Assembly: GCA_049997815.1 (NCBI GenBank)
Contig: JBEKVQ010000006.1
Coordinates: 2,613-66,612, forward strand
Reading direction: 5' to 3'
From: Minisyncoccia bacterium
Lineage (GTDB): Bacteria > Patescibacteriota > Minisyncoccia > UBA6257 > GWB1-50-10
DNA: 64,000 bases
The position numbers and the translations under genes are program-made. The stretch's first letter is position 1. The number at the start of each line of letters is the position of its first letter. Under the pieces are notes generated by a model that was given only the letters and a program-made list of their open reading frames with translations, searched no databases and had not been told where the DNA came from. This document shows, piece after piece, positions 1 through 41,015 of the stretch.

Positions 1-17
1 ATCCCCGGAAATCATTC

Positions 18-5074: not shown

Positions 5075-5079
5075 AGCGC

Positions 5080-7465: not shown

Positions 7466-9237
7466 TGAACCCTGAAACAAAAACCTGCCAAAACTGCAAG
7501 CAACCGTTCAGAATTGAACCGGACGATTTTGCGTTTTACGAGCAGATAAAAGTTCCGCCACCGACTTTCTGTTTTGACTGTCGTTTGGAACGCCGCATGG
7601 TCTGGCGGAACGAGCGCTCGCTTTACAGGAGAAAATGCAATGCGCCGGGGCATTCGGAGGACATCATAAGCATGTACGCGCCGGAGGGGGAGTATAACGT
7701 CGTCGATTCAAAGTTCTGGTGGTCGGACGGGTGGGACCCGATGATGTACGGGCTTTATTACAATTTTTCCGTCCCGTTCTTCAAGCAATTCGAACGGTTG
7801 ACCCACAGCGTGCCGCTTTTGAATCTCTCCATCGTGAATTCGAATAATTCGGACTATACGAACTACGTGGACGGGAACAAGGACTGCTATCTGGTTTTCG
7901 GTTCGGGATGGAACGAGAACGTCAATTACGGCAACAAGATAATGGGCAATAAGGACTCCCAGGACCTTTTGGGTACCACGAAGTGCGAACTCTCGTATGA
8001 GAGCGTTAATTGCGTGGAGTGCTATCGGCTGCTTTACAGCCGGAACTGCAAGGCCTGTTCAAATTCTTGGTTTCTGTACAACTGCCGGAATTGTCAGGAT
8101 TGCGTCGGTTGCGCCAATCAGAACAACAAGACGCACTGCATTTTCAACGTCCAATACTCTAAAGAGGAGTACGAAAAGAAGCTGGGAGAGCTTGGGCTTA
8201 ATACAGTCGGAGGCATTGCTTCCGTTAAAGAGGAATTCACAAAAACCTATCTGCAGGTGCCTCACCGCTACGCGAATATTTTCAATTCGGTGGACTGCAC
8301 GGGGGAGAACATCAACGATTCGAAGAACGTAAAATATTCATTCGATATCTTCGAAAAGATGGAGGATTCGAGATATATGTACGGTTCGCTCCAGACCAAG
8401 GATTGCTACGACGGGAACGGCATTTACCAGAATCCGATGTGCTACGAGACGGTGGACGCGAACATCGGCCAGAACGTGCACATGTCGCTCACCATTTATT
8501 CCTCGAATGACATAACCTACTGCTGGAATTGCCACTCTTCATCCGACCTCTTCGGCTGCGTCGGTTTGCGCAATAAGAAGTATTGCATCTTGAACAAACA
8601 GTATACGAAAGAGGAATATGACGAGTTGCTCCCCAAGATAAAGAAACACATGAACGATATGCCGTATGTAGACAAGATTGGCCGGAAATACGGGTACGGG
8701 GAGTACTTCCCGGACGAAATATCGCCGTTCGCGCACAACGAGTCCATCTCGCAGGAGTATTTCACGCTTTCGAAAGAGGAAACCGAAAAAGCCGGATACG
8801 CCTGGCGCAATATGCTTGAACGGGATTATCGCCCGACCCTGCGTTCGGACCAGCTTCCGGACAGCTCCAGTTTTCCCGAATCTATCGCGAACGAGGTCGT
8901 GGAGTGCGAACACAAAGGGAGTTGCAACGAACAATGCACGACGGCTTTCAAATTCATTCCAGCTGAGATTCAGTTCTATAAGCGGCTGAACCTCCCGCTT
9001 CCGCATTTCTGCCCCAATTGCCGGCACTACGCCCGCTTGAGGCAGCGCAATCCGATAAAGCTTTGGCACCGCAAATGCCAGTGCGTCGGGGAAGCGTCCG
9101 AAAACGGCGTCTATCAAAACACCGTCCAACATCAGCATGGAGCAGGAAAATGTCCTAACGAATTTGAGACAAGTTACAGCCCGGAGAGGAAGGAGATAGT
9201 GTATTGCGAGCAGTGTTATCAAGCGGAAGTCGTATGA
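7465..9237 (+). CDS. Cys-rich zinc-ribbon repeat protein, family copy 3 (~590 aa)
   Basis: The ATG at 7465 overlaps the mnmA stop (TGATG). N-term MNPETKTCQNCKQPFRIEPDDFAFYEQIKVPPPTFCFDCR. C-term NEFETSYSPERKEIVYCEQCYQAEVV. Confidence 0.7.
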   Translation: MNPETKTCQNCKQPFRIEPDDFAFYEQIKVPPPTFCFDCRLERRMVWRNERSLYRRKCNAPGHSEDIISMYAPEGEYNVVDSKFWWSDGWDPMMYGLYYNFSVPFFKQFERLTHSVPLLNLSIVNSNNSDYTNYVDGNKDCYLVFGSGWNENVNYGNKIMGNKDSQDLLGTTKCELSYESVNCVECYRLLYSRNCKACSNSWFLYNCRNCQDCVGCANQNNKTHCIFNVQYSKEEYEKKLGELGLNTVGGIASVKEEFTKTYLQVPHRYANIFNSVDCTGENINDSKNVKYSFDIFEKMEDSRYMYGSLQTKDCYDGNGIYQNPMCYETVDANIGQNVHMSLTIYSSNDITYCWNCHSSSDLFGCVGLRNKKYCILNKQYTKEEYDELLPKIKKHMNDMPYVDKIGRKYGYGEYFPDEISPFAHNESISQEYFTLSKEETEKAGYAWRNMLERDYRPTLRSDQLPDSSSFPESIANEVVECEHKGSCNEQCTTAFKFIPAEIQFYKRLNLPLPHFCPNCRHYARLRQRNPIKLWHRKCQCVGEASENGVYQNTVQHQHGAGKCPNEFETSYSPERKEIVYCEQCYQAEVV

Positions 9238-10907
9238 ACTCTGAGACCAGAAATTGCCAAAATTGCAAACAGCCGTTCAAGATAGAATCGGAAGATTTTG
9301 GGTTTTATGAAAAAATGGGCGTGTTGCCGCCGGTTTTGTGTCCGGATTGCCGGATGAAACGGAGATTGGTCTGGAGGAACGAGCGCACGCTTTACAAGCG
9401 TACTTGTGACTTATGTAAGAAATCGATCGTCTCAGTTCATCATCCTAATTACCCATCTCCGGTGTACTGCGTTAAGTGCCATCATTCAGACAATTGGGAC
9501 CCGTATTCTTTCGGGGTCGCCTATGATCCCAGCCGTCCATTTTTCGATCAGTTCAAAGAACTTTTACTACGGATTCCAAAAGCAGCCACCCATCACGGCA
9601 CTGCCGATGGTTCCCCCAACGTAAACAGCGAATACGTAAATTTCGCCGGCGGGAACAAGGATTGCTATCTCATTTTTAACTCAAGCGTGAGTGAAAATTG
9701 CAGCTATTCACGAGGACTCATTAATTGTCGTGATACCATGGATTCCTATTTTGCCGACCAGGTAGAACGCTGCTACGAAGGAGTGAACATCAATAAGAGT
9801 AATTCGGTGATTTATGGCCAAGATGTTTTTGATTCCATGGATTCCATGTTCCTCCTGAATTGCGTGGGTGTTCAGCATTGCTTTGGTTGTGTTAATTTGA
9901 GGCACAAGTCCTACCATTTTTTCAACGAGCCATTGTCCAAGGACGAATGGGAAAAACGAGTTGGAGAGATCCGAGGTAGTCACCAAAAGACGAAAGAAGC
10001 AAGAAGGCGCTTTGAAGTTTTTGCGCTTACCATGCCGCGCAAAGAGAATAACAATATGAAATCAGTGAACTGTTCGGGTGATTATATTTTTGAATCGAAG
10101 GGCTGTTCCTCGTGTTTTGAAATATTCGCTTCGGAAAACTGCAAATACGGATTTTCCGTGAAACTTGCAAATGATTGCTACGATTTAGTTGGTCGCGGGC
10201 ACAAATCGGAATTGCTCTTGGAAGGCGTTGGAGTTGGCCACGGTTGTTCTCGTGTTATCGGTTCATGGGTGGCTGAAGTATCGCACGATGTTGAATATTC
10301 TTATGATGTTCGTTCTTGCGAGTATTGCTTTGGGTGCGCGGCCTTAAGGCACGCCCGTTTTTGTATTTTTAACAGGCAGTATTCGGAAAAAGAATATAAA
10401 AAAATAAGAGAAGATATTGTCTCCCATATGAAACAGGGGGGTTCGTACGGGATGTACTTTCCGCCCGCACTTTCTCCCTGGGCATACAATGAAACACTGG
10501 CGCAGGAAAATTTTCCTCTCACCAAAGAAACGGCCGTAACCAGCGGGTTTCGTTGGGAAGAAGGCATACCACGGACGAAGGGGAAGGAAACGTTATTGCC
10601 GGAACAAATCCCAGACAACATAAAAGACGTTTCGGACTCGATTCTTAATGAAACTCTGAAGTGCATTTCCTGCGGCCACAATTATCGTTTAACTCCCGCC
10701 GAGTTTGCTTTATATCGCGAGCTTCTCGTGCCTGTGCCGCGGGAGTGTTTTGACTGTCGCTATCTAGACCGTATCCGCCGCAGAGGACCGATCAAGCTTT
10801 ATGTTCGGAAATGCGCTAAGTGCGGTAAATCGATTAATACCACCTTTGCTCCCGACCGGCCTGAAATCATCTACTGCGAGCAGTGTTATCAAGCGGAGGT
10901 GGTTTGA
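9234..10907 (+). CDS. Cys-rich zinc-ribbon repeat protein, family copy 4 (~557 aa; shorter, variant C-terminal module)
   Basis: ATGA overlap with the copy 3 stop. N-term MNSETRNCQNCKQPFKIESEDFGFYEKMGVLPPVLCPDCR. Ends KCAKCGKSINTTFAPDRPEIIYCEQCYQAEVV and lacks the CQCAG...NEFETSY segment. Confidence 0.7.
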   Translation: MNSETRNCQNCKQPFKIESEDFGFYEKMGVLPPVLCPDCRMKRRLVWRNERTLYKRTCDLCKKSIVSVHHPNYPSPVYCVKCHHSDNWDPYSFGVAYDPSRPFFDQFKELLLRIPKAATHHGTADGSPNVNSEYVNFAGGNKDCYLIFNSSVSENCSYSRGLINCRDTMDSYFADQVERCYEGVNINKSNSVIYGQDVFDSMDSMFLLNCVGVQHCFGCVNLRHKSYHFFNEPLSKDEWEKRVGEIRGSHQKTKEARRRFEVFALTMPRKENNNMKSVNCSGDYIFESKGCSSCFEIFASENCKYGFSVKLANDCYDLVGRGHKSELLLEGVGVGHGCSRVIGSWVAEVSHDVEYSYDVRSCEYCFGCAALRHARFCIFNRQYSEKEYKKIREDIVSHMKQGGSYGMYFPPALSPWAYNETLAQENFPLTKETAVTSGFRWEEGIPRTKGKETLLPEQIPDNIKDVSDSILNETLKCISCGHNYRLTPAEFALYRELLVPVPRECFDCRYLDRIRRRGPIKLYVRKCAKCGKSINTTFAPDRPEIIYCEQCYQAEVV

Positions 10908-20702: not shown

Positions 20703-22475
20703 ATGGCGTCTGAAACCAAAAATTGCCAAAATTGCAAAAAGGACTTCACCATTGAGCCCGATGATTTTTCGTTCTACGAAAGGATAAAAGTACCACCTCC
20801 GACTTTTTGCCCGGAGTGTCGGCTACAGAGGCGGCTCGTGTGGCGTAACGAGCGCAGTCTTTACAAACGTACCTGCGAGCTCTGCGGCGAAGTTACCATA
20901 TCCATGTATAACGAGGAAAGTCCGTACCCAGTTTACTGCTCCAAATGCTGGTGGTCGGACGGGTGGGATCCGATGCGTTACGGGAGAAATTACAATTTTT
21001 CCCGTCCATTCTTCGAACAGTTTAAAGATTTAATGCTCCGCGTGCCCCGCGTGAGCTTGGGCCATAAGGATGCCGTTGACTCTCCTTATACCAATTACAT
21101 AGTTCACGTTAAAAATTCTTATCTCGTTTTTGGCGGCCATGACGTCGAGGACTCATCTTATGTGGCGCTCCGAAGCCATTTTTTGAAAGATTGCCTGGAT
21201 GTTGATCAGATACATCATTCGGAATCATGTTACTGGAGCATGGACTGCAATAAGTGTTATCGGGTTTTCTTCAGTCAATACTGTGATGGTTGTAATGATT
21301 CGAGGTTTCTATTTGATTGTCGAAATTGTGCTAACTGTATCGCATGCGTGGGATTACGAGGCAAGCAATATCATATTTTGAACCAAGCGTATTCCAAAGA
21401 AGATTATCTCAAAAAAGTTGAAGAATTAGAGTTGGGGAGCTGGAAAGGTGTTCAAAATCTTTGGGAAAAGTGCGTGCAACTCCGATTAAAACTTCCGAGG
21501 CGTTATGCGATGATTCTGCAGTCCGCCAATGTGAGCGGCGACGACATTATGGGAGTGAGAAACTGTCGGAATTGTTTCGCGGTTTCGAATGAAAGCGAAA
21601 ATTGCGCTTATCTCTGGAGCATGGACCGCGTTAAAGAAAGTCATGACATAAATTTCAGCTATCTCACTGAATTTTCCTATGAGGGAATGAGCACGGTGGA
21701 GGGTCAAAGGATGTTTTTTGGTAATGTGGCTTGGACGAATCACGAAACCAGCTATGTGGATAATTGCCATGACTGCGGCAACCTTTTTGGGTGCGCAGGA
21801 TTGCGCAGTAAGGAATACTGCATCCTCAACAAACAATATACCAAGGAAGAGTACGAGGCCATCGTTCCTAAGGTAATAAAGCACATGAACGACATGCCCT
21901 ATAAGGATGCTAAGGACAGGATCTATAAATACGGGGAGTTTTTCCCGCCAGAACTTTCTCCCTTTGCGTACAATGAAACCATCGCTCAAGAGTATTTTCC
22001 TCTGACTAAGGAAGAAGCCTTGCGACAGGGTTATAGATGGCGAGAACCCGACACGAAACAGTACAACATCACCGAGAAGCCGGAGAATCTGCCAGATAAC
22101 ATTAAAGATGTCCCCGATTCAATCACTGAAGAGGTTATCGGTTGCGCTCATCAAGGAACTTGCACGCATCAATGTACCACCGCTTTCAAGATTACCTCCG
22201 GAGAACTCCAATTCTATCGCCATATGAATCTTCCTCTCCCTCGACTTTGCCCGAACTGCCGTCATCACGAAAGATTGGCCCAGAGAAATCCGCTACGACT
22301 ATGGTACCGCAAGTGCCAGTGCGCCGGTATTAAATCCGAAAACGGAGTTTATCAAAACACCGCAAAACATCAACACGGAACAGGGAAGTGCTTGAACGAG
22401 TTCGAGACATCATATGCACCCGAACGCAAAGAAATCGTCTATTGTGAGCAGTGTTATAATGCCGAAGTCATATGA
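20703..22475 (+). CDS. Cys-rich zinc-ribbon repeat protein, family copy 5 (590 aa)
   Basis: Starts 1 nt after the glycerate kinase stop. N-term MASETKNCQNCKKDFTIEPDDFSFYERIKVPPPTFCPECR. C-term NEFETSYAPERKEIVYCEQCYNAEVI. Confidence 0.7.
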   Translation: MASETKNCQNCKKDFTIEPDDFSFYERIKVPPPTFCPECRLQRRLVWRNERSLYKRTCELCGEVTISMYNEESPYPVYCSKCWWSDGWDPMRYGRNYNFSRPFFEQFKDLMLRVPRVSLGHKDAVDSPYTNYIVHVKNSYLVFGGHDVEDSSYVALRSHFLKDCLDVDQIHHSESCYWSMDCNKCYRVFFSQYCDGCNDSRFLFDCRNCANCIACVGLRGKQYHILNQAYSKEDYLKKVEELELGSWKGVQNLWEKCVQLRLKLPRRYAMILQSANVSGDDIMGVRNCRNCFAVSNESENCAYLWSMDRVKESHDINFSYLTEFSYEGMSTVEGQRMFFGNVAWTNHETSYVDNCHDCGNLFGCAGLRSKEYCILNKQYTKEEYEAIVPKVIKHMNDMPYKDAKDRIYKYGEFFPPELSPFAYNETIAQEYFPLTKEEALRQGYRWREPDTKQYNITEKPENLPDNIKDVPDSITEEVIGCAHQGTCTHQCTTAFKITSGELQFYRHMNLPLPRLCPNCRHHERLAQRNPLRLWYRKCQCAGIKSENGVYQNTAKHQHGTGKCLNEFETSYAPERKEIVYCEQCYNAEVI

Positions 22476-24259
22476 CCTCCGAAACTAGAAATTGCCAAAA
22501 CTGCAAGCAAAACTTCGTCATTGAATCCGACGATTTTGACTTTTACGAAAAAATGAAGGTTCCGGCGCCGACGTTTTGTCCCGATTGCCGGTTGGTTCGA
22601 AAATTGATCTGGAGGAACGAGCGCGTTCTATACCGGCGCGAGTGCGACCTTTGCAACAAATCCGTCATCTCTATTTATCCGAAAGAAAGCCCGCTAAAAG
22701 TATATTGCCATGATTGCTGGTGGGGAGATAAGTGGGATCCGCAGGTGTACGCAGCAAAATTCAATCCCAGTAAGCCGTTCTTTGAACAGTATCGAACGCT
22801 TGTCGAATCCGTTCCGGTTATAAATCTTTTCAATACCAATCCGGTCAATTCCGAATATTGTAATTACGCCAGCAATAGTAAGAATTGCTACTTATTCGTC
22901 GGCGGTAGGGAATGCGAGAATATTCTATATGCCAACCGAGTATTTTCCTCCAAGGACTCGATCGATCTCTACGATGCCAATAAGTTGGAGTTGTCCTACG
23001 AGGCAATCCAGTGCAAAAATTGCAATCGCTTGTTCTTCGGACAGTTATGCACGGATTGCAATGATTCGTGGTTTCTCTACGACTGCCGGGGCTGCCAGAA
23101 CTGTTTTGGCTGCGCGAATCTTCGCGGGCAGCAATATCACATCTGGAATCAGCCCTATCAGAAAGAGGATTACTTCGCGAAGCTGAAAGAATTCGATCTG
23201 GAAAGCCGCGCCGGCTTGGAAAAGGCAAAGAAACTCGCGGAAGAACATCTCGCCAAATATATCCGCCGTTATGCCCACATCGTCAATTCTCCGGGGAGCA
23301 CGGGGGACAATCTTTACAATTGCCGGAACTGCAAATATTGCTTCGATTTGACCGGCTCCGATTCGGAGAGCTGCAAATTCACGCACTTCGCCGGCGTCGG
23401 CATGAAGGACTCCTACGATAATTACGGGGCGCCCCGCGCCGAACAGGTTTACGAAACCCTGGCCATCGGCTTTGAATCCAACGATAACTCGCATTATTAC
23501 TTCAGTTATTTCGTTAGAGGAAGCCACGACATCTATTATTCTTACAATTGCGTTTCCTCCTCATATCTCTTTGGATGCGTCGGATTGCGCAATAAGCAAT
23601 ATCGCATTTTGAACAAACAGTATACAAAGGAGGAATATGAAGAACTTGTTCCGAAAATCATTCAGCAAATGAATGATATGCCGTTCATGGATAAGAGGGG
23701 ATTGGTCTATAAATACGGAGAATTTCCGCCGGCGGAGTTCTCGCCATTCGCTTATAACGAAACCATTGCCCAGGATTATTTTCCCATTACTAAAGATGAG
23801 GCAATCAAGCAGGGTTATCTTTGGAAGGACCCGGAGACCAAGGCATATCAGGTAACCATTCCGGCGGATAAGATACCGGAGCGCATCAAAGACGTTCCCG
23901 ATGCCATTACTTCCGAGGTTATCGCTTGCGCCCACGCAGGGAAGTGCACTCACCAGTGCACCACCGCTTTCCGTATCATTCTGGAAGAGCTTCAATTTTA
24001 CCGAAGGATGGATCTGCCTCTGCCGAGATTGTGTTCCAATTGCCGCCATTATGAGAGATTGGCACAGAGGAATCCAATGAGATTATGGCACCGAAAATGC
24101 CAGTGTGCTGGGGCAAAATCCGAGGGTGGTGCCTATCAAAATACCGTCAAGCATCAGCACCAAGACGGCCACTGTCCGAACGAATTTGAGACGAGTTATT
24201 CCCCAGAGAGGAAGGAAATCATCTACTGCGAGCAGTGCTATAACAGCGAGGTAATATGA
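22472..24259 (+). CDS. Cys-rich zinc-ribbon repeat protein, family copy 6 (595 aa)
   Basis: ATGA overlap. N-term MTSETRNCQNCKQNFVIESDDFDFYEKMKVPAPTFCPDCR. C-term NEFETSYSPERKEIIYCEQCYNSEVI. Confidence 0.7.
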   Translation: MTSETRNCQNCKQNFVIESDDFDFYEKMKVPAPTFCPDCRLVRKLIWRNERVLYRRECDLCNKSVISIYPKESPLKVYCHDCWWGDKWDPQVYAAKFNPSKPFFEQYRTLVESVPVINLFNTNPVNSEYCNYASNSKNCYLFVGGRECENILYANRVFSSKDSIDLYDANKLELSYEAIQCKNCNRLFFGQLCTDCNDSWFLYDCRGCQNCFGCANLRGQQYHIWNQPYQKEDYFAKLKEFDLESRAGLEKAKKLAEEHLAKYIRRYAHIVNSPGSTGDNLYNCRNCKYCFDLTGSDSESCKFTHFAGVGMKDSYDNYGAPRAEQVYETLAIGFESNDNSHYYFSYFVRGSHDIYYSYNCVSSSYLFGCVGLRNKQYRILNKQYTKEEYEELVPKIIQQMNDMPFMDKRGLVYKYGEFPPAEFSPFAYNETIAQDYFPITKDEAIKQGYLWKDPETKAYQVTIPADKIPERIKDVPDAITSEVIACAHAGKCTHQCTTAFRIILEELQFYRRMDLPLPRLCSNCRHYERLAQRNPMRLWHRKCQCAGAKSEGGAYQNTVKHQHQDGHCPNEFETSYSPERKEIIYCEQCYNSEVI

Positions 24260-26034
24260 CCTCCGAAACTAGAAATTGCCAAAACTGCAAACAATCCTTC
24301 ACGATTGAGCCGGATGATTTCAGTTTCTACGAAAAAATCCACGTGCCGGTGCCTACCTGGTGCCCGAACTGCCAACTGCAGCGGAGATTTTGTTTTAGGA
24401 ACGAACGGACGCTTTATAAGCGCAAGGAGTCGCTCCGGGGCGAGGTGGTCATCTCTAATTATTCGCCGGACCTGAACGTCCCGATCTATAACCAGCAGGA
24501 TTGGTGGAGCGATTCGTGGGACCCGATGATGTACGGGAAATCATACGATTTTTCGAAACCGTTCTTTCTGCAGATGAAAGAACTCTCGAGAGCAGTGCCG
24601 TGGCCGGCGCTCCTGAACTGGAATGCGGTAAACAGCGATTACTGTGTTTACACCACGGACAACAAGGATTGCTACCTGGTTTTCGGCGGGGACTACAACG
24701 AAAATTGTTTCTGCGCCACGCATAACTTCCATTCTAAGGACAGTGGCGAATTATTTTGGGTGGAAAAGTGCGAGCTTTGCTACGAGCTCATCTACAGCGA
24801 AAACTGTTTCCGGGTGAAATACGGTCGGTACGTTAACAACTGCACCGATTGCGCGTTCATGTTGAGTTGCACGAACTGCACCGATTGCATCGGGTGCGTG
24901 GGGCTGAAGAACAAATCCCACTGCATCCTGAACAAACAATATTCCAAGGAGGAATACGAAAATAAAGCGAAAGGAGCGGCGCTGGATACGCGGGCGGGGC
25001 TCGAGAAGTTCAAAAGGCAATTCGAGGAACTGCGCCTGTCCCAACCAACCCGTTTCGCGGAGATCTATAAATCGGTCGGTTGTACCGGGGACAATATCCA
25101 CAGCAGCAAGAACTGCGTCAACTGTTTCGACGTCTTCGACGGGGCGGAGGATTTGAAGAATGCGGTTCTCGCCGGATGGGGGAGCAAAGACGGACGGAAT
25201 GTGAACCACTTCGGACATAAATCGGAGCTGGTATACGACTCCCTCATCACCTTCGATAATTCGCAGCGGGTGCGATTTTGCGCTTCCACGTCCACTTCGC
25301 AGGACATTGAGTATTCCATGAACTGCCGGAGTTCCCGGAATCTCTTCGGTTGCGTAAATCTTCGGGGGAAGGAGTATTGTATCCTGAACAAGCAGTACGA
25401 CAAGGATTCGTACGAAAAGACGCGTTCTCAGATCGTCGAGCACATGAAGGCGATGCCGTATAAGGATATGCAGGGCTATATGTACACGTATGGTGATTTC
25501 TTCCCGCCGGAACTTTCCCTTTTTGCCTATAACGAGACGTCGGCCCAAGAGTACTTCCCGTTGACCAAAGAAGAAGCGTTGAGGTTGGGATACGAATGGC
25601 GCGAGGCCGAGAACCGAGAGTATACAGCCACGAAACCAGCCAGTTCAATGCCGGATAACATAGCGGAAGTAGATGACTCAATAACCAAGGAAGTCATTGG
25701 ATGTTCCCATAATGGGGAATGCAATCAGCGCTGCGCCAAGGCGTTCCGCATCGTTCCGCAGGAACTCCAATTGTATCGCCAGCTTAACGTCCCGCCGCCG
25801 ATACTTTGTCCAAGTTGTCGCCACTATGAACGTATGAGCCAAAAAAATCCCCTAAAGCTTTGGCATCGAAAATGCCAGTGTTCGGGAGTTAGATCCGAAA
25901 ACGGCGTTTATCAGAATACCGTTAAACATTTTCACGAAGATGGTCATTGTCCCAACGAGTTTGAGACCTCTTTTGCTCCCGAGCGGAAAGAAATAGTGTA
26001 CTGCGAGCAGTGTTATCAAACGGAAGTAGCATGA
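24256..26034 (+). CDS. Cys-rich zinc-ribbon repeat protein, family copy 7 (592 aa)
   Basis: ATGA overlap. The first 36 nt are identical to copy 6. C-term NEFETSFAPERKEIVYCEQCYQTEVA. Confidence 0.7.
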   Translation: MTSETRNCQNCKQSFTIEPDDFSFYEKIHVPVPTWCPNCQLQRRFCFRNERTLYKRKESLRGEVVISNYSPDLNVPIYNQQDWWSDSWDPMMYGKSYDFSKPFFLQMKELSRAVPWPALLNWNAVNSDYCVYTTDNKDCYLVFGGDYNENCFCATHNFHSKDSGELFWVEKCELCYELIYSENCFRVKYGRYVNNCTDCAFMLSCTNCTDCIGCVGLKNKSHCILNKQYSKEEYENKAKGAALDTRAGLEKFKRQFEELRLSQPTRFAEIYKSVGCTGDNIHSSKNCVNCFDVFDGAEDLKNAVLAGWGSKDGRNVNHFGHKSELVYDSLITFDNSQRVRFCASTSTSQDIEYSMNCRSSRNLFGCVNLRGKEYCILNKQYDKDSYEKTRSQIVEHMKAMPYKDMQGYMYTYGDFFPPELSLFAYNETSAQEYFPLTKEEALRLGYEWREAENREYTATKPASSMPDNIAEVDDSITKEVIGCSHNGECNQRCAKAFRIVPQELQLYRQLNVPPPILCPSCRHYERMSQKNPLKLWHRKCQCSGVRSENGVYQNTVKHFHEDGHCPNEFETSFAPERKEIVYCEQCYQTEVA

Positions 26035-27827
26035 ACGCCGAGATAAAAACCTGTCAAAATTGCCATAAAGAATTCGTAATTGAACCCGACGATTTCACGT
26101 TCTACGAAAAGATGCAGGTGCCGGCGCCGATGTTTTGCCCGCAGTGCCGATTCCAGCGGCGGCTTTCTTTTTGCAACGAGAGGCATTTATACAAAATAAA
26201 TTGCGGATTGTGTGGCAAGGGAATGATCGCGATGTATCCTCCGAATACGAAATTCCCGGTTTACTGCCTACCTTGTTACCGGAGCGACAACTGGGACCCA
26301 CTCTCTTACGGGAGGGAGTATAACTTTGACCAGCCGTTCTTCGAACAATTCAAGGAATTGAAGTCACATGTGCCCCGGGCATCGCTCGTCCGGCAGGGGG
26401 ACATCGCGGGCAGCGAATACTGCAACCGGGCGAGTTATAACAAAGATTGCTACCTGATAATCCGGGCGAACTATAACGAGAATTCGCTCTATTCCTACAA
26501 CTTGTGGGAGTCCCGGGACAGCATGGATTGTTTTAACGTCCACAAATCCGAGCTGGCTTATAACTGCATCGATTCCATCGATTGCTATCACGTCCAATAT
26601 TGCCAGGAATGCAGATTATGCCGGGATTCCATTCTTCTTTTCGACTGCCGGAATTGCACGAGTTGTATCGGGTGCGTCGGATTGCGGAATAAGCAGTATC
26701 ACATTCTGAACCGCCCGTATACGAAAGAAGATTACGAGAACGAACTGCGTGGTTTGAGTTTGAATACTGTGGCGGGGATGACGGCTCTGGCGGGGCGATT
26801 CAAGGTGATTTTAGATAAAGCAATTCGCGAGTCCGAGATCGAAACGAATTGCGTCCGGTCCACCGGGAATTGGCTCACCGACTGCAAAGATGTTCTGGAT
26901 TCGTACCAGTGCCGGGATTTTGAGAACGGAAAATATCTGCTTTCCGTCATCGGGGCCAAGGATTGCATGGACTACTCGTACTGGGGCCGGGAAACGGAGC
27001 TCGTCTACGAATCCTCGAATTGCGGATACAACGTATCGAGAATTCGGTTTGCGAACGAATCCTGGGATGCCTGCCATGACCTGACCTATTGCGACAACTG
27101 CTATTCGTCGGCCAATCTCTTCGGTTGCGTCGGCTTAAGGAAGAAGGATTATTGCATCCTGAATAAGCAGTACACGAAAGAGGAGTATGAAAAAATGATG
27201 CCGAGGATAGTCGAGCATATGAACTCCATGCCGTACACGGATAAGAGGGGAAGGGTCTACAAGTTCGGGGAATTCTTCCCAACCGAGCTTTCAGCTTCTC
27301 CTTATAACATGACGGCGGCTTACGAGAATTTTCCGTTGAATAGAGAGGAAATTCTAAAGCAGGGATATGCCTGGGAGGATTTCAAGGAAAAAGAGTATAC
27401 GGTGACAAAATCCTGGCGCGACCTTCCCGAAAGTATCGAAACGGTGGACGACAGCATTCTTAAGGAGGTCATTCTTTGCAAGACCCAGGATGAAGGCAGT
27501 AAGGGCATTATCGAGGAGCGCAGCTGCACCAAGGCGTTCCGGATAACGCCGGAGGAATTCTCGTTCTATCGGAGAATGAATATCCCGCTCCCGCACTCCT
27601 GTTTTAATTGCAGACATTATGAGCGTTTCAAGAAAAGAAATCCGCTGAAGCTCTGGCACCGCAAATGCCAGTGCGCCGGCGCCAAATCCGAGAATGAAAT
27701 TTACCAAAACGTCGCCCAACACCCGCACGGAGCAGGCCACTGTCCCAATGATTTTGAAACCAGTTACAGTCCGGAAAGAAGGGAGATAGTGTATTGCGAA
27801 CAATGTTATAATAGCGAAGTAGTTTAA
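26031..27827 (+). CDS. Cys-rich zinc-ribbon repeat protein, family copy 8 (~598 aa)
   Basis: ATGA overlap. N-term MNAEIKTCQNCHKEFVIEPDDFTFYEKMQVPAPMFCPQCR. C-term NDFETSYSPERREIVYCEQCYNSEVV. Confidence 0.7.
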   Translation: MNAEIKTCQNCHKEFVIEPDDFTFYEKMQVPAPMFCPQCRFQRRLSFCNERHLYKINCGLCGKGMIAMYPPNTKFPVYCLPCYRSDNWDPLSYGREYNFDQPFFEQFKELKSHVPRASLVRQGDIAGSEYCNRASYNKDCYLIIRANYNENSLYSYNLWESRDSMDCFNVHKSELAYNCIDSIDCYHVQYCQECRLCRDSILLFDCRNCTSCIGCVGLRNKQYHILNRPYTKEDYENELRGLSLNTVAGMTALAGRFKVILDKAIRESEIETNCVRSTGNWLTDCKDVLDSYQCRDFENGKYLLSVIGAKDCMDYSYWGRETELVYESSNCGYNVSRIRFANESWDACHDLTYCDNCYSSANLFGCVGLRKKDYCILNKQYTKEEYEKMMPRIVEHMNSMPYTDKRGRVYKFGEFFPTELSASPYNMTAAYENFPLNREEILKQGYAWEDFKEKEYTVTKSWRDLPESIETVDDSILKEVILCKTQDEGSKGIIEERSCTKAFRITPEEFSFYRRMNIPLPHSCFNCRHYERFKKRNPLKLWHRKCQCAGAKSENEIYQNVAQHPHGAGHCPNDFETSYSPERREIVYCEQCYNSEVV

Positions 27828-32285: not shown

Positions 32286-34029
32286 ATGAATTTGGAAACC
32301 AGAAACTGCCAAAATTGTAAGCAATCCTTCGTCATTGAACCGGAGGATTTTGCGTTTTATGAAAGGATGACTGTTCCGCCTCCGACTTTTTGTTGGGAGT
32401 GCCGGATGCAACGGCGTTTTGTTTGGAGAAACGAACGCACATTGTACAAGAGAAAGTGTGATTCTTGCGGAAGGAGTTCACTCTCCATGCATCATCCCAA
32501 AGTCCCCATTGTCGCTTACTGCCAGGAGTGTTGGCTTTCCGACAAGTGGGATGCGTTATCTTTTGGGGTAGAGTATGATTTTTCAAGGAGTTTTTTCGAA
32601 CAAATTCGGGATTTGTTGCTGAGAGTCCCCCGAAGGATGCTTTTTGTCGTAAATTCCAAAAACTCGCCCTTCACAAATTACACCAGAAATGCAAAGAATG
32701 TCTACCTCTCCGTTTCAGCTTTGGAGTCAGAAAATATTTTCTTTTCGAAGAACACGCTGAGAACATTCTGGGCCTGCGATTGTTTTGACATAAATGATTC
32801 CGAAAACTGTTACAGTGCTATAAAGGGTGATAAAAATTACAATTCGAAGTTTTTATTCGAGAGCCGTAATTGCATTGACTGTGCTTTCCTTTATGACTGC
32901 GTGAATTGTAGGGGTTGTATACTTTCCTCGAATTTAAGGAATAAAGAATTCTACGTAAGAAATCGACCGTGCACCAAGGAAGAGTATCAAAAAGTACTTA
33001 CCTCACTTAACCTTGGAAGTGCCTTGTCTACTAAAAGTGCTGAATTGGAACTGGAGAGAATTAAGCAAGCCGCTCTCCATAAATATGCCCAACTGGTCAA
33101 TGCTCCGAATTGTTCGGGTGACAACATAGCTGATTCTAAGAACTGTCACTATTGTTTCGACGGCAGGAATGATGAAAATTTGAAGTTTGGTTTTAGAGAC
33201 CCAGGTGTCAAGGATTCTATGGATGTAGTGAATGGTGGCCCACAGGCAGAACTTTTTTATGAATTTATCGGTGGGGGAGGGATGAACAGTAGGTCCTTAA
33301 TGTTTACTGTTAATGCTGACGTCGGTCTTGATGATATTCGTTATACGGAATATTGCTCTAAATCCTCCCACCTCTTCGCCTGCATCGGCCTCCGTTCCAA
33401 GCAATACTGCATCCTAAACAAGCAATATTCGAAGGATGAGTACGAATCCCTGGTCCCCAAGATCATTGCCCACATGAACACTCAGCCCTACATAGACCAG
33501 AAGGGCAGGATATATAGATACGGCGAGTTCTTCCCCCCGGAGCTCTCTCCCTTCGCCTACAACGAAACCATCGCCCAGGAGTACTTCCCCCTGACCAAAG
33601 GAGAAGCAGAGAAACAGGGCTATAGATGGAAAGACCCCGATACCCAAGGAATACGTGATAACCATCCTCCCAACCAAGCTTCCTGACCATGTGAAGGACG
33701 TAAAGGACGACATCCTATCCCAGACCATAGGGTGTGTCCACGAAGGCAAGTGCACCCACCAATGCACCACCGCTTTCAGAATCATCCCCGAAGAACTCTC
33801 CTTCTACCGAAGGATGAACCTCCCTTTACCCCGACTCTGCCCTAACTGCCGGCACTACGAACGCCTAGCTCAGAGAAATCCTTTGAAGCTGTGGCATAGG
33901 CAATGTATGTGCGATAAGACCACCCATACCCATAAGGGCCACTGTCTGAACGAATTCGAGACGAGTTACAGCCCAGAGCGGAAAGAAATCGTGTATTGCG
34001 AATCCTGTTATAATTCAGAGGTAGTATGA
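32286..34029 (+). pseudogene. Cys-rich zinc-ribbon repeat protein, family copy 9. It is disrupted by a +1 frameshift in a CCC run (33643-33645) and split into ORFs 32286-33686 and 33655-34029.
   Basis: The two ORFs together reconstitute a full-length family member (...GYRWKDPDT | KEYVITILPTKLPDHVKDVKDD...). The break coincides with a homopolymer. Confidence 0.6.
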
Positions 34030-35225
34030 AGATAAAAAGCATTGAAATAAAAGAAATATTGGATTCGCGGGGTGAGCCGACGATAGAGGTGAACGTAACC
34101 GGCGAAAACAACGAGAGCACTTCCGCTCAAATCCCTTCCGGGAAGAGCCGGGGGAAGAACGAAGCGGCGGTACTGAAACCGGCGGAAGCGGGGCATGTTT
34201 TGGAAAAGACGATAAAACCGAACATCGCCGACCGGAACTTCGAATCCATCGGTGAACTGGATGCGTTTCTGATAGCTCTGGACGGCACCGACAACAAAGA
34301 AAGATTGGGCGGGAACCTTATTTTGGGCATCTCGATCGCTTTTGCGCGCCTTATGGCCAAACAGCAGGAAAAAGAGCTGTGGCAGGTTTTGAACGAAGAA
34401 TTCTTTGAGGGTAAAAAATATTACGAGAAGCCCCTGATATTCTCCAACCTCATAAACGGCGGAGCGCACGCCAAGAACAACCTGGATATCCAGGAATATA
34501 TGGTCGTGGTGAGGCCGTACCCGTCGTATAAAATGGCCATCAGAGAGCTTGAGGATTTTTACGCTAAGCTCGGAGATTTTCTGAAAGAGAAGTTCAAGCT
34601 GGAAAAATTGGCGTTGGGCGACGAGGGCGGATATTCACTGAAATTTTCCAATAATTTCGAACCGATAGAAGTGCTTTCGGAGATGATAGAAAAATTCGAC
34701 ATTACGAAGATATTCTCGATCGCGCTGGACTGCGCCGCGAACGGTTTTTACAAGGATGGACTGTACAGCTTCGGCAAGCAGAAGTTGAATTTCATGGAGA
34801 TGGCCGAAATATATCGGGTTTATTTTCAAACCGTTCCGCTCCTGGTGTCCATAGAAGACCCGTTTGCCGAGGATGACCACGCTGGTTTCAAAAGATTGCA
34901 TTCTTTGTACAAAAACAAGCTGGTGGTGGGGGACGATTTGGCGGTAACGAACCCCCTCGTGATCGAAGAGGCCGTGAAGGAGAAATTGATGAGCGGGGTG
35001 ATAATCAAGCCGAATCAGGTTGGCACCGTGACCGAAACCTGCGAAGCGATGAAGATAGCTCACGTGAACGGTTTAAAGACCATCGTCTCCCACCGCTCGG
35101 GGGAGGAGAATGACCCGTTCATAATTCACTTCGCCAAAGCCGGCGGAGCTTATGGCGTAAAGATCGGCGCGCCGGTCCCGAGCCGGATATCAAAATATAT
35201 CGAACTGGAAAGGCTCTATGGCTAG
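34026..35225 (+). CDS. eno: Enolase (phosphopyruvate hydratase), divergent and short (399 aa)
   Basis: N-term IKEILDSRGEPTIEVNV...PSGKSRGKNEA. C-term SHRSGEENDPFIIHFAKAGGAYGVKIGAP...SKYIELERL. ATGA overlap with the copy 9 stop. Confidence 0.75.
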   Translation: MKIKSIEIKEILDSRGEPTIEVNVTGENNESTSAQIPSGKSRGKNEAAVLKPAEAGHVLEKTIKPNIADRNFESIGELDAFLIALDGTDNKERLGGNLILGISIAFARLMAKQQEKELWQVLNEEFFEGKKYYEKPLIFSNLINGGAHAKNNLDIQEYMVVVRPYPSYKMAIRELEDFYAKLGDFLKEKFKLEKLALGDEGGYSLKFSNNFEPIEVLSEMIEKFDITKIFSIALDCAANGFYKDGLYSFGKQKLNFMEMAEIYRVYFQTVPLLVSIEDPFAEDDHAGFKRLHSLYKNKLVVGDDLAVTNPLVIEEAVKEKLMSGVIIKPNQVGTVTETCEAMKIAHVNGLKTIVSHRSGEENDPFIIHFAKAGGAYGVKIGAPVPSRISKYIELERLYG

Positions 35226-36993
35226 CGAAACCCGTGAGTGCCAAAATTGCAATCGATCCTTCGTCATTGAACCGGAGGATTTCAGTTTCTACGAGCGGAT
35301 AAAAGTTCCACCACCGACGTGGTGTCCGGAATGCAGGATGATAAGAAGAATGACCTGGCGGAACGAAAGGAATCTTTACAGAATCGCCTGCGGTCTTTGC
35401 GGGAAAAGCATAATCTCGCTCTACCCACCCGAGAGCGGCGTCAAAGTTTATTGCAGTCAATGCTGGTTTTCGGACAAATGGGATGCATCGAATATTAATT
35501 TAGATTACGATTTTTCCCGGCCGTTCTTTTCCCAGTGGCACGATTTGTTCATGAAAGCGCCCCTAATCGCCATATGGTCGATAAGAGGCAACGTCAACTC
35601 GGAATACTGCAGTTATGCCGCGGATAACAAGAATTGTTATCTGTCATCCTCGGTTCTTTGGAGCGAAAACGTGTCTTACTCTTATTCGGTCGACAGGGAC
35701 AGGGATTGCATTGATTGTGCTTTCCTCAATGATTCTGAGCTTTGCTACGAGAATCTGAACGGCGCGAATAACTACAGGTCCGTTTTTCTCATTCAATCAA
35801 GGAATTGCCTGGATTCCTCATTCCTTTTCGACTGCGTCAATTGCCAGAATTGTTTCTTGAGCTGGAATTTGAGGAACAAAAGATTCGTTTTTAGGAATCA
35901 GCAGCTTGATGAAGCATCGTATAAAGAAAAATTGAAGGAGTTTGAGATGGGAAGCTCGGCAAATTTAGTGAGATTATTTGATGAATTCACTAAGATTTCG
36001 AAAGAAAAAGCCCTGCATCGTTACGCCAATATAATAAAGTCCCAAAAAGCGACGGGGGATAACATAGAAAATTCCAAGAACGTTAAGGAAGTTTTTGAGG
36101 CTTATGAAGATGAAAACGCATTTTACGGCGTAAGGGTATTTAAGGACAAGGATGTTGTGGATGCGATTGGCGTCGTCGGATCGGAGCTCGGCTACGAGTT
36201 GATCGCCCCGGGTTTGGCGAGCTATATGAGCCTGTTCGTAATGTTAAACGATTCCTGCCGCGAAGTGTCTTTTACGAATTACTGCTTCAATTGTTCCAAC
36301 TGTTTTGCTTGTATCGGTCTCAAGAACAAGCAATACTGCATCCTGAATAAGCAATACACCAAGGAAGAGTACGAATCACTGGTTCCCCGTATCATTGCCC
36401 ACATGAACGACATGCCCTACATAGACAAGAAGGGCAGGGTCTACCGATACGGTGAGTTCTTCCCCCCGGAATTATCTCCCTTCGCCTACAACGAAACCAT
36501 CGCCCAGGAGTACTTTCCCCTCACGAAAGGAGAGGCCATAGAGAAGGGCTACCGCTGGAAGGAGCCGGAAGAGAAAAAATATGAGATTACCATCCTTAAT
36601 GACCGGATCCCCGATAATATAAAGGACGTTCGCGACGATATCGTGAATGAGGTCATAGAATGCGCCCATAAGGGAGAATGCAATGAGCACTGCACTCAGG
36701 CCTTCAAGATGACGCCACCCGAAGTTCAATTCTATAAACGGATGAATCTTCCGTTGCCCCGGTTATGTCCAAATTGCCGGCATTACCAGCGTTTGAGGAG
36801 AAGAAATCCTTTAAGGCTTTGGCACCGGAAATGCGCCTGCGCCGGCGCAAAATCCAATAATGGTTCATATATGAACACCATTTCCCACCAGCACGGAGCG
36901 GGGAAGTGCCCGAACGAGTTCGAAACCTCCTACGCTCCGGAGCGGAAAGAGATAGTGTATTGCGAAAGTTGCTACAACACCGAAGTCGTATGA
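35218..36993 (+). CDS. Cys-rich zinc-ribbon repeat protein, family copy 10 (591 aa)
   Basis: N-term MASETRECQNCNRSFVIEPEDFSFYERIKVPPPTWCPECR. C-term NEFETSYAPERKEIVYCESCYNTEVV. Overlaps the eno stop by 8 nt. Confidence 0.7.
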   Translation: MASETRECQNCNRSFVIEPEDFSFYERIKVPPPTWCPECRMIRRMTWRNERNLYRIACGLCGKSIISLYPPESGVKVYCSQCWFSDKWDASNINLDYDFSRPFFSQWHDLFMKAPLIAIWSIRGNVNSEYCSYAADNKNCYLSSSVLWSENVSYSYSVDRDRDCIDCAFLNDSELCYENLNGANNYRSVFLIQSRNCLDSSFLFDCVNCQNCFLSWNLRNKRFVFRNQQLDEASYKEKLKEFEMGSSANLVRLFDEFTKISKEKALHRYANIIKSQKATGDNIENSKNVKEVFEAYEDENAFYGVRVFKDKDVVDAIGVVGSELGYELIAPGLASYMSLFVMLNDSCREVSFTNYCFNCSNCFACIGLKNKQYCILNKQYTKEEYESLVPRIIAHMNDMPYIDKKGRVYRYGEFFPPELSPFAYNETIAQEYFPLTKGEAIEKGYRWKEPEEKKYEITILNDRIPDNIKDVRDDIVNEVIECAHKGECNEHCTQAFKMTPPEVQFYKRMNLPLPRLCPNCRHYQRLRRRNPLRLWHRKCACAGAKSNNGSYMNTISHQHGAGKCPNEFETSYAPERKEIVYCESCYNTEVV

Positions 36994-38771
36994 ACTCCGA
37001 AACTAAAACCTGTAAAAACTGTAGCTCGTCCTTCGTCATTGAACCGGACGACCTTACTTTTTACGAGCGGATAAAAGTTCCGCCACCGACTTTCTGCCCG
37101 GAGTGCCGAAGCCAGCGGAGGCTTTCATGGCGGAACGACATGAATTTGTACACCCGTCCCTGTGATTCGTGCGGGAAGAGGATGGTTTCTCTTTATTCTC
37201 CGGATTCCGGGATGACGGTCTATTGCGTGAAATGCTGGTGGAGCGATAAATGGAACCCGAAGGATTATGCAATGGAATATGATTTTTCTAAGCCGTTCCT
37301 CAGGCAATTCGACGAATTGCAGAAAAAGGTGCCAATACTCGCGCTTGCGAACGATGACGGTCTCGTCGGAGGAAGCGTGAATTGTGAATACAATCATGAC
37401 TTTGCCCGAGCGAAGAATTGCTACATGGTTTTCGTGGCCTGGAAGCTCCAGGATTCCATGTACAGTCACTATATCGTTGACAGCAAGGGGATGGTGGATT
37501 GTTTGAGCAGCTGGGACGAGTCCGATTCGGTTTATGAGGGAATATTCGCCGAGAGGTGCTATAAATGCTGGTACGTTTTTTACTCCGTCGCTCTTTCGGA
37601 TTGCGCATTTTGCCTGGATTCTAGGGATTCTTCCGATTGCTTCATGTGCACCGGCTTGCGCCACAAGCGGTATTACTTCAAGAACAGGCCATATTCCAAG
37701 GAGGAATACGAAAAAATCCTGGCCGATTACAAACTCGATACGTATAGTGGCGTGGAACGGGCCAAGGAGGAATTTAGGGAGATGCTCTATTTGAAGCCGC
37801 GCAAATTTTCCATACTGCGCAACACCGTAAATTCAACCGGGGATTATCTGACCAATTGTAAAAATTGCCGAGACTGTTTTTTGGTCCAGCGCGGAGAGAA
37901 CCTTCGGTATGTAGAGAGCTCGGATACGCCCGTGGACTCTTACGATCTAAGCACGGGAGGAGAATTGCAGTATTGCTATGAAGGAATTACGCCGGACCAC
38001 TCGTATATGGGCCGATTTGAAATATTTTCGTGGAAGAATACGGATGTTTTTTATCTGGACGGCTGCCATTCCTGCAAGGATGTTTTTGGGTGTTGCGGGC
38101 TCAAAAAAGCGCAGTATTGTATTTTGAATAAGCAGTACACGAAAGAGGAGTACGAAAAAATTTTGCCTAAGGTCATAGAGCACATGAATGCGATGCCGTA
38201 TAAGGACAAAAACGGCGTGGAATACCGCTTCGGCGAGTTTTTCCCCGCAGAGTTGTCTTACTTCGGTTATAACGAAAGCGTTGCCCAAGAACGGATTCCG
38301 CTAAGTCGCGAACAGGCGCTCGCCAGCCATTTTAACTGGCGGGACAAGTTACAGCTGACGACCGGCCAGGAGACAGTCAAGACAGAAAATTTGCCCGATT
38401 CCATAGATGACGTAAAGGATTCCATATTGAATGAGGTTCTGGCCTGCATTGGATGCAAAAGGAATTACCGTATTGTTCTTCAGGAATTGCAATTTTACCG
38501 GCGAATGAAGATCCCTTTGCCCCGAAAATGTTTCTATTGTAGGCATCAGGCTCGCGTGAATTTTCGGAATCCCTTCAAGCTTTGGCACCGGAAATGCGCC
38601 TGCGTGGGTTCGACAAGCTCACCACAGGCTGGTCCCGGCTTTGTTTATCAAAATACAGTGAAGCATTTCCATGGCGATAAGGAATGCCCCAATGAATTTG
38701 AGACCTCATACGCGCCTGAGCGGAAAGAGGTGGTATATTGCGAGCAGTGTTATAATTCAGAAATCGTATGA
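36990..38771 (+). CDS. Cys-rich zinc-ribbon repeat protein, family copy 11 (~593 aa)
   Basis: ATGA overlap. N-term MNSETKTCKNCSSSFVIEPDDLTFYERIKVPPPTFCPECR. C-term NEFETSYAPERKEVVYCEQCYNSEIV. The upstream part of the long ORF call (from 36906) overlaps copy 10 and is rejected. Confidence 0.7.
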   Translation: MNSETKTCKNCSSSFVIEPDDLTFYERIKVPPPTFCPECRSQRRLSWRNDMNLYTRPCDSCGKRMVSLYSPDSGMTVYCVKCWWSDKWNPKDYAMEYDFSKPFLRQFDELQKKVPILALANDDGLVGGSVNCEYNHDFARAKNCYMVFVAWKLQDSMYSHYIVDSKGMVDCLSSWDESDSVYEGIFAERCYKCWYVFYSVALSDCAFCLDSRDSSDCFMCTGLRHKRYYFKNRPYSKEEYEKILADYKLDTYSGVERAKEEFREMLYLKPRKFSILRNTVNSTGDYLTNCKNCRDCFLVQRGENLRYVESSDTPVDSYDLSTGGELQYCYEGITPDHSYMGRFEIFSWKNTDVFYLDGCHSCKDVFGCCGLKKAQYCILNKQYTKEEYEKILPKVIEHMNAMPYKDKNGVEYRFGEFFPAELSYFGYNESVAQERIPLSREQALASHFNWRDKLQLTTGQETVKTENLPDSIDDVKDSILNEVLACIGCKRNYRIVLQELQFYRRMKIPLPRKCFYCRHQARVNFRNPFKLWHRKCACVGSTSSPQAGPGFVYQNTVKHFHGDKECPNEFETSYAPERKEVVYCEQCYNSEIV

Positions 38772-40555: not shown

Positions 40556-40562
40556 TCCATTA

Positions 40563-41015
40563 ATGACTCAAGAACTTAACAGAAACACGAAGATTTGGCT
40601 CACGGTCGCGAGAATAGCGCTGGGCTGGTTTTTCTTTTATGCCGGGCTCGTAAAGATACTGGACGCTAATTGGAGCGCCGCCGGATTCCTGAACGGCGCG
40701 AAGACGTTTCATGGTTTATACGCCTGGTTTGCCGCTCCGAACGTCATCGGAATCGTGAATCTTCTGAATGAATGGGGGCTTTTGCTTTTGGGAGCATCTC
40801 TCATACTGGGGCTCTTCGTGCGGTGGAGCACGATTCCCGGAGTTCTTTTAATGCTTCTTTATTATTTCGCCAGCAACGCCTTTCCTTTCGTCTCCAACGG
40901 ATTCATCGTGGACGACCATATTATCTTCATCGCGCTGCTTGTGCTGTTTTTCGTAACTCACGACGGGTATTACTTCGGTTTGGACGAAAAATTCGGCAAG
41001 AAGATTTCCCAATGA
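40563..41015 (+). CDS. DoxX-family membrane protein
   Basis: Start at MTQELN. LTVARIALGWFFFYAGLVKI is a DoxX-like first TM motif. Four TM helices. Confidence 0.55.
   Translation: MTQELNRNTKIWLTVARIALGWFFFYAGLVKILDANWSAAGFLNGAKTFHGLYAWFAAPNVIGIVNLLNEWGLLLLGASLILGLFVRWSTIPGVLLMLLYYFASNAFPFVSNGFIVDDHIIFIALLVLFFVTHDGYYFGLDEKFGKKISQ

Follow-up and report, generated by a model that had tools for sequence, protein, structure and literature searches.

Old tandem paralogs of a cysteine-rich protein family in a Minisyncoccia genome probably recombine sporadically at protein-conserved boxes

Neisseria pilE/pilS, Borrelia vlsE and Mycoplasma genitalium MgPa/MgPar are cassette-based systems of antigenic variation. 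Here we compare with them a tandem gene family in a stretch of 64,000 nucleotides (nt) (hereafter the window: contig JBEKVQ010000006.1, positions 2,613 to 66,612, assembly GCA_049997815.1) from a metagenome-assembled genome (MAG) of a Minisyncoccia bacterium, which belongs to the Patescibacteria or candidate phyla radiation (CPR). The region under study, 22436–24300, holds the end of one family copy (c4), the whole of the next (c5, NCBI protein ABSF47_02510) and the start of a third (c6). The original prediction for this region was that conserved gene ends around variable cores make the array a variation-generating locus. As in the three known systems, the copies are clustered, and variable cores lie between conserved homology blocks as recombination substrates. 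Unlike them, the array lacks both a single expression locus and truncated silent cassettes; its proteins look cytoplasmic and have no signal peptide, its cores are ancient and orthologous to those of other genera, and exchange is rare.

Tandem multigene families that evolve by birth-and-death, with non-allelic homologous recombination and interlocus gene conversion, offer a second comparison; Trypanosoma tandem arrays (PMC1855330) and mosaic divergence in tandem paralogues (bioRxiv 10.1101/2025.10.29.685298) are examples. Our locus shares with families shaped by non-allelic homologous recombination and conversion the co-directional tandem paralogs, the short high-identity tracts bounded by divergence, the hybrid genes, the copy-number breakpoints in identical stretches, and old paralogs that keep their orthogroup identity. 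Unlike them, it sits in an ultra-small CPR genome that gives several percent of its DNA to the family, and exchange appears confined to three protein-conserved boxes, swapping whole N-terminal and middle (N/mid) modules against C-terminal (C) modules.

We consider it probable that this is an ancient birth-and-death family whose copies recombine sporadically, by homologous recombination, at these three boxes. The family protein is ~590 amino acids (aa) long, cysteine-rich and apparently cytoplasmic. It opens with a conserved double zinc ribbon, continues with a middle part that varies strongly between copies, and closes with a C-terminal module that is again conserved. The middle is separated from the C-terminal module by the motif LFGCxGLRxKxYCILNKQY(T/S)KEEYE, hereafter the internal motif. 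The substrates for exchange would be the 5′ box of the gene, a stretch at or just after the internal motif, and the 3′ box.

Age and spread of the family

Twelve family copies lie in the window, every one on the + strand; we number them c0 to c11. Together with seven more directly upstream on a JGI contig, they form a series of co-directional paralogs that are adjacent or nearly so, and the whole genome has about 19–21 copies in ~52 kb, amounting to ~35 kb of DNA. Elsewhere the family is large. About 8,000 homologues were significant among the candidates scored, and a profile search (E≤1e-30) put its size at 2,263 or more clusters of 50% identity. Every member is annotated as a hypothetical protein and comes from a Paceibacteria-type CPR lineage; the family is thus confined to the Patescibacteria (Paceibacteria/Minisyncoccia and their relatives). 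Arrays are common, with up to nine copies per locus among 85 other loci of ≤22 kb.

The window copies share only 39–55% of their residues in pairwise comparisons, and for every one of the 12 some other genome has a closer relative than the array itself provides (outside versus inside identity is 70.7% versus 51% for c1, 62% versus 40% for c3 and 67% versus 54% for c5). Their variable N/mid modules are at most 42% identical within the window and 43–95% identical to outside orthologues. Among 387 full-length members, 553 same-locus pairs are no more alike than 74,138 different-locus pairs (mean identity 0.340 versus 0.344 for N/mid, 0.498 versus 0.504 for C). Because the copies are closer to outside orthologues and same-locus pairs are not more alike, we see neither concerted evolution nor array-wide homogenisation, and the paralogs appear ancient, with no rapid shuffling of their cores. 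Synonymous sites are saturated: at identical residues paralogs use the same codon at a rate of 0.39–0.53, against 0.42 expected.

The interiors diverge, just as had been noted. Nucleotide identity has a median of ~0.70 at the 5′ end, falls to 0.40–0.45 in the middle, and reaches 0.65 in the internal conserved block and 0.6–0.65 at the 3′ end. Contigs from other samples show stability: three of them are 99.97–100% identical to the window, over 5.6 kb (L086, 2 mismatches), 7.2 kb (L165, 100%) and 21.2 kb (L171, one indel).

Exchange between copies and its explanation

We assessed recombination by a synonymous-site scan and by a codon shuffle (1000 shuffles) that preserves every protein sequence and the codon composition of each column. 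A putative conversion tract links c8 (33399..33610, + strand), where it starts at the internal motif (LFGC..ILNKQY), with c9 (36328..36540, + strand). Over ~210 nt the two copies have ~88% nucleotide identity, versus a median of 65% at that position. Identical residues in the tract are encoded by identical codons in 45 of 55 cases (p~5e-4 per pair in the synonymous scan), and the 41-nt exact core has an array-wide P of 0.002 in the codon shuffle. The exact stretches of at least 30 nt that are shared among 21 copies measure 35, 53 and 30 nt in the 5′ box, 35, 41 and 125 nt at or just after the internal motif, and 55 nt in the 3′ box. The sole exact stretch outside the three boxes is an 856-nt N/mid segment shared by the upstream copy cA and c0, and it ends at the internal motif. 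That motif, not a gene terminus, is the most used breakpoint. The expectation that conserved terminal boxes serve as recombination substrates is borne out in part: copies do recombine at conserved boxes, but the internal motif is used most, and nucleotide conservation of the gene ends is not general across the array.

Hybrid genes also occur in other genomes. At the c4 position of a related species' locus (L087) stands a gene, geneA, whose C-terminal 240 codons match c8 (aa identity 0.82–0.84, nucleotide identity 0.75–0.78, same-codon use 0.57). These values equal those seen for the true c5 orthologue in L087, and the first 380 codons of geneA are as distant as any paralog (aa 0.31). The L087 genes that flank the c5 orthologue (1081–2823 and 4619–5175) are not orthologues of c4 and c6; to judge from this comparison, array composition turns over around c5 as a conserved member. 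On an unrelated metagenome contig (L003), the nucleotide identity of two neighbouring genes (854–2765 and 3334–5158) climbs from ~0.5 to 0.81–0.99 exactly at the internal motif. The C-modules of this pair are 93% identical and the N/mid modules 41%.

Copy-number and mosaic variants across strains had been predicted, and both are found when assemblies are compared: a cX/cY polymorphism, a c8′/c8 hybrid and a chimeric c0. These strain-level variants were read from metagenome assemblies alone. The array continues upstream of the window, where a 225-kb JGI contig has the order CutA, cXY, c8′, c(-1), cA, cB, cC, cD and onwards. An earlier view, with no recombination beyond one tract, was abandoned once contigs from other samples had been compared.

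Two genes, cX and cY, are present in one assembly (L172), and a single fused gene in L173, L174, L175, L176 and the NCBI MAG (ABSF47_03870). The fused gene reads as cX as far as a 53-nt stretch that the two copies share exactly (codons ~18–36) and as cY beyond it, and the flanks are 99.6–100% identical among assemblies. This polymorphism is hard to explain as an artefact, because the two-copy form includes an extra, real gene body of 1.77 kb, the fused form was recovered independently from five sources, and the shared stretch is only 53 nt long. In sample ERZ27250117 (L173, position 2388) the fused gene carries a C→T nonsense change (CAA→TAA) that leaves a 544-aa product, and a 544-aa form is also present on a JGI contig (P0216).

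The second variant lies in the gene before enolase in L172, which matches c8′, a copy ~36 kb upstream, at all informative sites up to window-equivalent 33919, and c8 from 33975. The crossover interval, 33920..33974 (+ strand), belongs to the 3′ box of c8, and c8′ has the same 55 nt there without a difference. L172 has two private single-nucleotide polymorphisms (SNPs) within this interval, found in neither parent, and downstream of the switch its identity to the window is 100% over 11.2 kb.

The third variant is c0. Its nt 1–856 are 100% identical to the N/mid module of cA (L174 15329–17062, the upstream copy in the JGI contig), and its C-module (857–1370) is unrelated to that of cA and degenerate, its zinc ligands being lost. 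Identity with cA stops at nt 856, in the internal motif of c0 (800..860, + strand; FGCVGLRNKNYCILNKQYEPE). The NCBI MAG has one gene between c(-1) (ABSF47_02400) and c1 (ABSF47_02410), and the JGI contig is 7,041 nt (about four copies) longer there. Moreover, cA aligns over its full length to a Jorgensenbacteria orthologue (L080) at 68%, and the c0 C-module does not. We take the window's c0 to be a hybrid gene, because a single gene stands between those two locus tags and because the L080 orthologue is matched throughout by cA and not by c0. The same locus tags and L080 match ruled out an arrangement in which cA and c0 are two genuine loci with one identical N/mid module and the NCBI and JGI contigs are colinear. 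The L172 hybrid and the NCBI c0 join may each stem from misassembly, from a rearranged strain or from a recombinant in the minority.

Could the array simply be static? Its similarities would then be a by-product of purifying selection on zinc-ribbon and motif residues, and its variants assembly artefacts. We think this unlikely, although part of the evidence fits it. Synonymous saturation holds for the genes as a whole and for their 3′ ends, and L086, L165 and L171 are identical to the window where they overlap it. As deletion-type shortcuts, the L172 hybrid and the NCBI c0 each come from one assembly only, and a private frameshift in the window contig suggests that its assembly is imperfect. 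However, a static array leaves unexplained the extra 1.77-kb body and the presence of fused cXY in four independent assemblies as well as the NCBI MAG; at k=141, a shared 53 nt is too short for either cX/cY form to have arisen by collapse. Nor does it account for the two private SNPs that L172 has where its hybrid switches. Three further cases speak against it, namely the c8/c9 tract, the L003 pair and the L087 chimera, each of which lies within a single contig and is significant at synonymous sites.

A selected role for the exchange is a doubtful proposal. The family would then be a modular repertoire in which an N/mid 'specificity' module and a C module are joined at the motif, and recurrent recombination at the boxes would be a selected means of diversifying cytoplasmic zinc-finger proteins in both module combination and copy number. 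If true, this would be a previously unrecognised CPR diversification strategy, possibly in nucleic-acid recognition, defence or competence.

The gene ends were expected to be conserved at the DNA level, and here the picture is mixed. The 36 nt quoted as near-identical at adjacent 5′ ends are correct for c5 and c6. However, this is the sole such pair, and others share 18–34 of 39 nt; among adjacent copies, the first 39 nt have 30 identical positions in c4/c5, 26 in c6/c7, 30 in c2/c3, 18 in c9/c10 and 25 in c10/c11. The exact identity of c5 and c6 runs for 35 nt from the ATG and 2 nt upstream, giving a 37-nt repeat that includes the ATGA junction (22470..22506 at the c5 5′ end and 24254..24290 at the c6 5′ end, both + strand) and is a candidate micro-conversion patch. 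Under the shuffle the longest in-register exact run array-wide has a mean of 25.7 nt and a 99th percentile of 35. Because a maximum of at least 35 nt arises with P=0.018, the patch appears to exceed what amino-acid conservation gives; it would be real but exceptional. The second-longest run reached 35 nt in 0 of 1000 shuffles.

Along the gene, the observed/expected ratio of same-codon use starts at 1.22–1.24 (codons 1–60) and drops to about 1.0 over the final 40 codons. Comparing the window with other genomes of similar GC3 (G+C content at third codon positions) gives 1.11 at the 5′ end, and same-locus pairs elsewhere give 1.12; about half of the 5′ excess is a family-wide positional codon preference. 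The claim that the last ~50 nt are conserved beyond the protein did not hold: the ratio is 1.02–1.04 in the last 30–40 codons, with no excess. Pairs of copies are identical at 33–49 of the last 60 nt (55–82%; 44 of 60 for c4/c5), and conservation of the 3′ box is conservation of the terminal zinc ribbon at the protein level only. Saturated synonymous sites together with an absence of mosaics had been named as the pattern contrary to the original prediction. What we find is saturation, yet with mosaics both between copies and between assemblies.

Selection on the mRNA (for initiation, coupling or low secondary structure) is an improbable source of the c5/c6 identity and the 5′ same-codon excess. 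The excess in the first 60 codons does recur between genomes and in same-locus pairs elsewhere, at the 1.11 and 1.12 given above, and all overlapping starts share ATGA and a purine-rich upstream stretch. Against this, the L087 orthologue of c5 differs at 8 of its first 45 nt and its junction does not overlap, the other adjacent pairs in the window share only 18–30 of 39 nt, and the run is still unusual under a shuffle that keeps column-specific codon preferences.

The reading that we favour remains sporadic recombination within a birth-and-death family. Birth-and-death evolution would account for the old paralogs, the saturated synonymous sites and the orthogroups shared with other genera. Ordinary homologous recombination would act sporadically wherever protein conservation leaves ~35–125 identical nt. 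It would produce short gene-conversion patches (the c5/c6 5′ end and the c8/c9 internal tract), unequal crossing-over that removes or adds whole repeat units (cX/cY, possibly cA..cE), and module-swapped hybrid genes (c0, c8′/c8, L087 geneA and the L003 pair). The genes are packed co-directionally between housekeeping genes, and most junctions in this lineage would have been compacted to a 4-nt ATGA. Identities, breakpoints and orthology pattern are read directly from the sequences, as are the cross-assembly variants, which would represent real haplotypes. Exchange between copies would be of a RecA type, with no dedicated diversification machinery involved.

Several points weigh against this reading. 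The strain variants come from assemblies only, and joins that look like deletions between direct repeats are a typical form of assembly error. The c8′/c8 hybrid implies loss or relocation of ~36 kb with aspS and efp, so that a simple deletion is unlikely to be viable, and the c0 join is present in the NCBI assembly only. The copy cE was not seen directly, the comparison having been made without positions 22,036–46,955 of the JGI contig. For c5/c6, the synonymous-only scan is marginal (p~0.05 before correction for 55 pairs), and the 5′ same-codon excess is partly the family-wide codon preference (1.11–1.12 elsewhere versus 1.24 within the window).

Very improbable is a programmed cassette locus like pilE/pilS, vlsE or MgPa, with the boxes as designed joints for frequent core shuffling: a variable core does lie between conserved boxes, breakpoints recur at the same three boxes in unrelated genomes too, and arrays of up to nine copies per 22 kb are common in the clade, but there is no expression-site/silent-cassette asymmetry, all copies are full-length open reading frames (ORFs) with their own start codons, the sole frameshift (in c8) is absent from other assemblies, the N/mid modules of the paralogs are at most 42% identical while every one of them has conserved orthologues in further genera, a zinc ribbon and not a signal peptide forms the N-terminus, and most of the array has the same sequence in independent samples. 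The broader proposal of a variation-generating locus is not upheld either: copies have closer relatives outside the genome, all are full-length ORFs, and no recombinase, reverse transcriptase (RT) or invertase was found among the window ORFs scanned, which did not include every small ORF. A diversity-generating retroelement finds no support, as the scanned ORFs have no RT domain and the longest shared stretches are at most 125 nt and lie in conserved parts, the 856-nt cA/c0 segment excepted.

Start/stop overlaps at the tandem junctions

In compact prokaryotic operons, 4-nt ATGA start/stop overlaps with translational coupling are well established. The original prediction assigned such an overlap to every tandem junction. 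It is present at 9234, 22472, 24256, 26031, 34026, 36990 and 38768, but the step from c0 to c1 (1370/1386) has a 15-nt spacer. On the + strand 10 ATGA overlaps join two ORFs of at least 80 aa, and seven of these are at family 3′ ends. Family ends are enriched: 7 of 12 have the overlap versus ~3 of 40 other junctions (Fisher p=5e-4, the 40 being a rough gene count). The three others join non-family long ORFs at 15033 (the aspS end and a 149-aa ORF), 41012 (40401–41015 and the next ORF) and 61897 (60872–61900 and 61897–62598).

Six of seven tandem family junctions in the window have the overlap versus 9 of 71 in other genomes (p=1e-4). In L087, which is the locus most closely related to this one, the corresponding junctions are TAAtttATG and TAGgtatATG, with no overlap. 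Because they are not kept in L087 and occur at so few tandem junctions elsewhere, the overlaps are a recent, lineage-specific compaction that is evolutionarily labile and not a feature of the family; on the same grounds they are unrelated to recombination.

Each overlapping ATG is preceded, 4–9 nt upstream, by GAGG, GGAAG or GAAG (GAAA at c11), which derives from the conserved terminal Glu-Val codons. These stretches lie on the + strand at 9220–9233, 22458–22471, 24242–24255, 26017–26030, 34012–34025, 36976–36989 and 38754–38767. This purine-rich, Glu-Val-encoded stretch may be a Shine-Dalgarno element inside the upstream gene, and in combination with the ATGA overlap it probably couples the translation of the copies. 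The junctions resemble those of coupled operons in their same-strand ATG/TGA overlaps and in the purine-rich stretch within the last codons of the upstream gene. Unlike ATGA operons in general, the overlap here is strongly enriched at the family junctions of one genome and is not conserved in L087.

Gene layout, protein architecture and meaning

All copies are given here on the + strand. The window start cuts c0 (1..1370, ORF listed from 18), which is chimeric; c1 follows the 15-nt spacer (1386..3131, 581 aa) and has its 70.7% orthologue in another genome (L001). The ATG of c2 (7465..9237, 590 aa) overlaps the mnmA stop by 1 nt (TGATG), and c3 (9234..10907, 557 aa), joined to c2 by an ATGA overlap, is followed by ComEC. 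A run of four copies begins with c4 (20703..22475, 590 aa), directly after a glycerate-kinase-like gene (TAAATG). It continues with c5 (22472..24259, 595 aa), whose orthologue in L087 has 85–95% aa identity, c6 (24256..26034, 592 aa; ATGA overlap with c5) and c7 (26031..27827, 598 aa; ATGA overlap with c6), which has PPDK/PEP synthase 2 nt downstream. Further on, c8 (32286..34029), with a +1 frameshift in the window contig, overlaps enolase by an ATGA at 34026. The start of c9 (35218..36993, 591 aa) overlaps the enolase end by 8 nt, and c10 (36990..38771, 593 aa) and c11 (38768..40555, 595 aa) follow, each by an ATGA overlap with the copy before it. Housekeeping genes sit between copies: mnmA, ComEC, aspS, glycerate-kinase-like, PPDK/PEP synthase, 2-hydroxyacid dehydrogenase, enolase and VKOR. 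No tRNA or Rfam family was matched in the whole window, 1–64000.

The c8 frameshift is an extra C at 33645. Window positions 33639–33650 read GATACCCAAGG, and the independent assemblies L166 and L169 read GATACCAAGG there, which gives an intact 580-aa gene. In the NCBI contig the frameshift may be an error or, alternatively, represent a rare allele; we found no record elsewhere of the truncated c8 product.

The N-terminus of the protein, MxxETxxCQNCxxxF, belongs to a CxxC...CxxC ribbon and has no hydrophobic leader or membrane segment, as judged from the sequence and not by a predictor. A looser motif, C..C..GC..LR.K.Y.I.N..Y(S/T)KEEY, occurs twice per copy; in c5 the repeats are at residues ~196–240 and ~360–400 (~23057–23190 and ~23549–23670, + strand). 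This doubling suggests that the protein arose by internal duplication. Its second occurrence is the recombination breakpoint.

Database matches were few. Weak treble-clef matches cover N-terminal aa 5–44 and the last ~35 aa, less than 15% of the protein. PF13451 (zf_Tbcl), PF23477 (zf_Tbcl_2) and TIGR04272 stayed below their cut-offs, with best scores of 19.6, 24.5 and 21.4 bits against cut-offs of 24, 27 and 36, and sub-threshold zinc-finger matches occurred in 16 and 7 of 70 homologues. The N- and C-terminal CxxC...CxxC modules weakly resemble these treble-clef ribbons. Unlike members of those families, our proteins score under the curated cut-offs and have ~500 unmatched residues; for these, we found no match in Pfam, NCBIfam, PADLOC, PDB or BFVD. 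PADLOC has no match for the family and PDB no sequence relative, and a confident AlphaFold2 model (pLDDT, the predicted confidence score, 81) had no match in PDB and only zinc-ribbon matches in BFVD. A literature search on cysteine-rich or tandem genes of Patescibacteria/Parcubacteria and on CxxC-x17-CxxC found nothing on the family, which is without known function.

Two TraG/VirD4/HerA-like P-loop ATPases, both with a CxxC-x17-CxxC finger, stand at the array edges, one in the window (3176–5074) and one upstream (L174 7872–9326, the same as L172 2589–4043). The former has a clear CxxC-x17-CxxC finger (PF23477, E=3e-15) and matches 'mad8' of PADLOC (E=1e-13). A functional link of the family to the zinc-finger ATPases, or to the ComEC gene after c3, is possible and offers a lead only.

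What does this mean for the organism and for the family? An extremely reduced CPR genome keeps about 20 copies (~35 kb) of one uncharacterised family. The ATGA overlaps at their junctions reflect lineage-specific compaction and are not evidence of recombination. Functional work on the family can build on its modular architecture, which it will need and which these comparisons define. The same recombination property would explain why MAG contigs break or collapse at such arrays, and the window contig itself has a chimeric c0 and a private frameshift. Because copy number and modules change between otherwise identical strains, the arrays would be hotspots of copy-number change and module swapping, and would mark a rare fast-evolving compartment of streamlined genomes.

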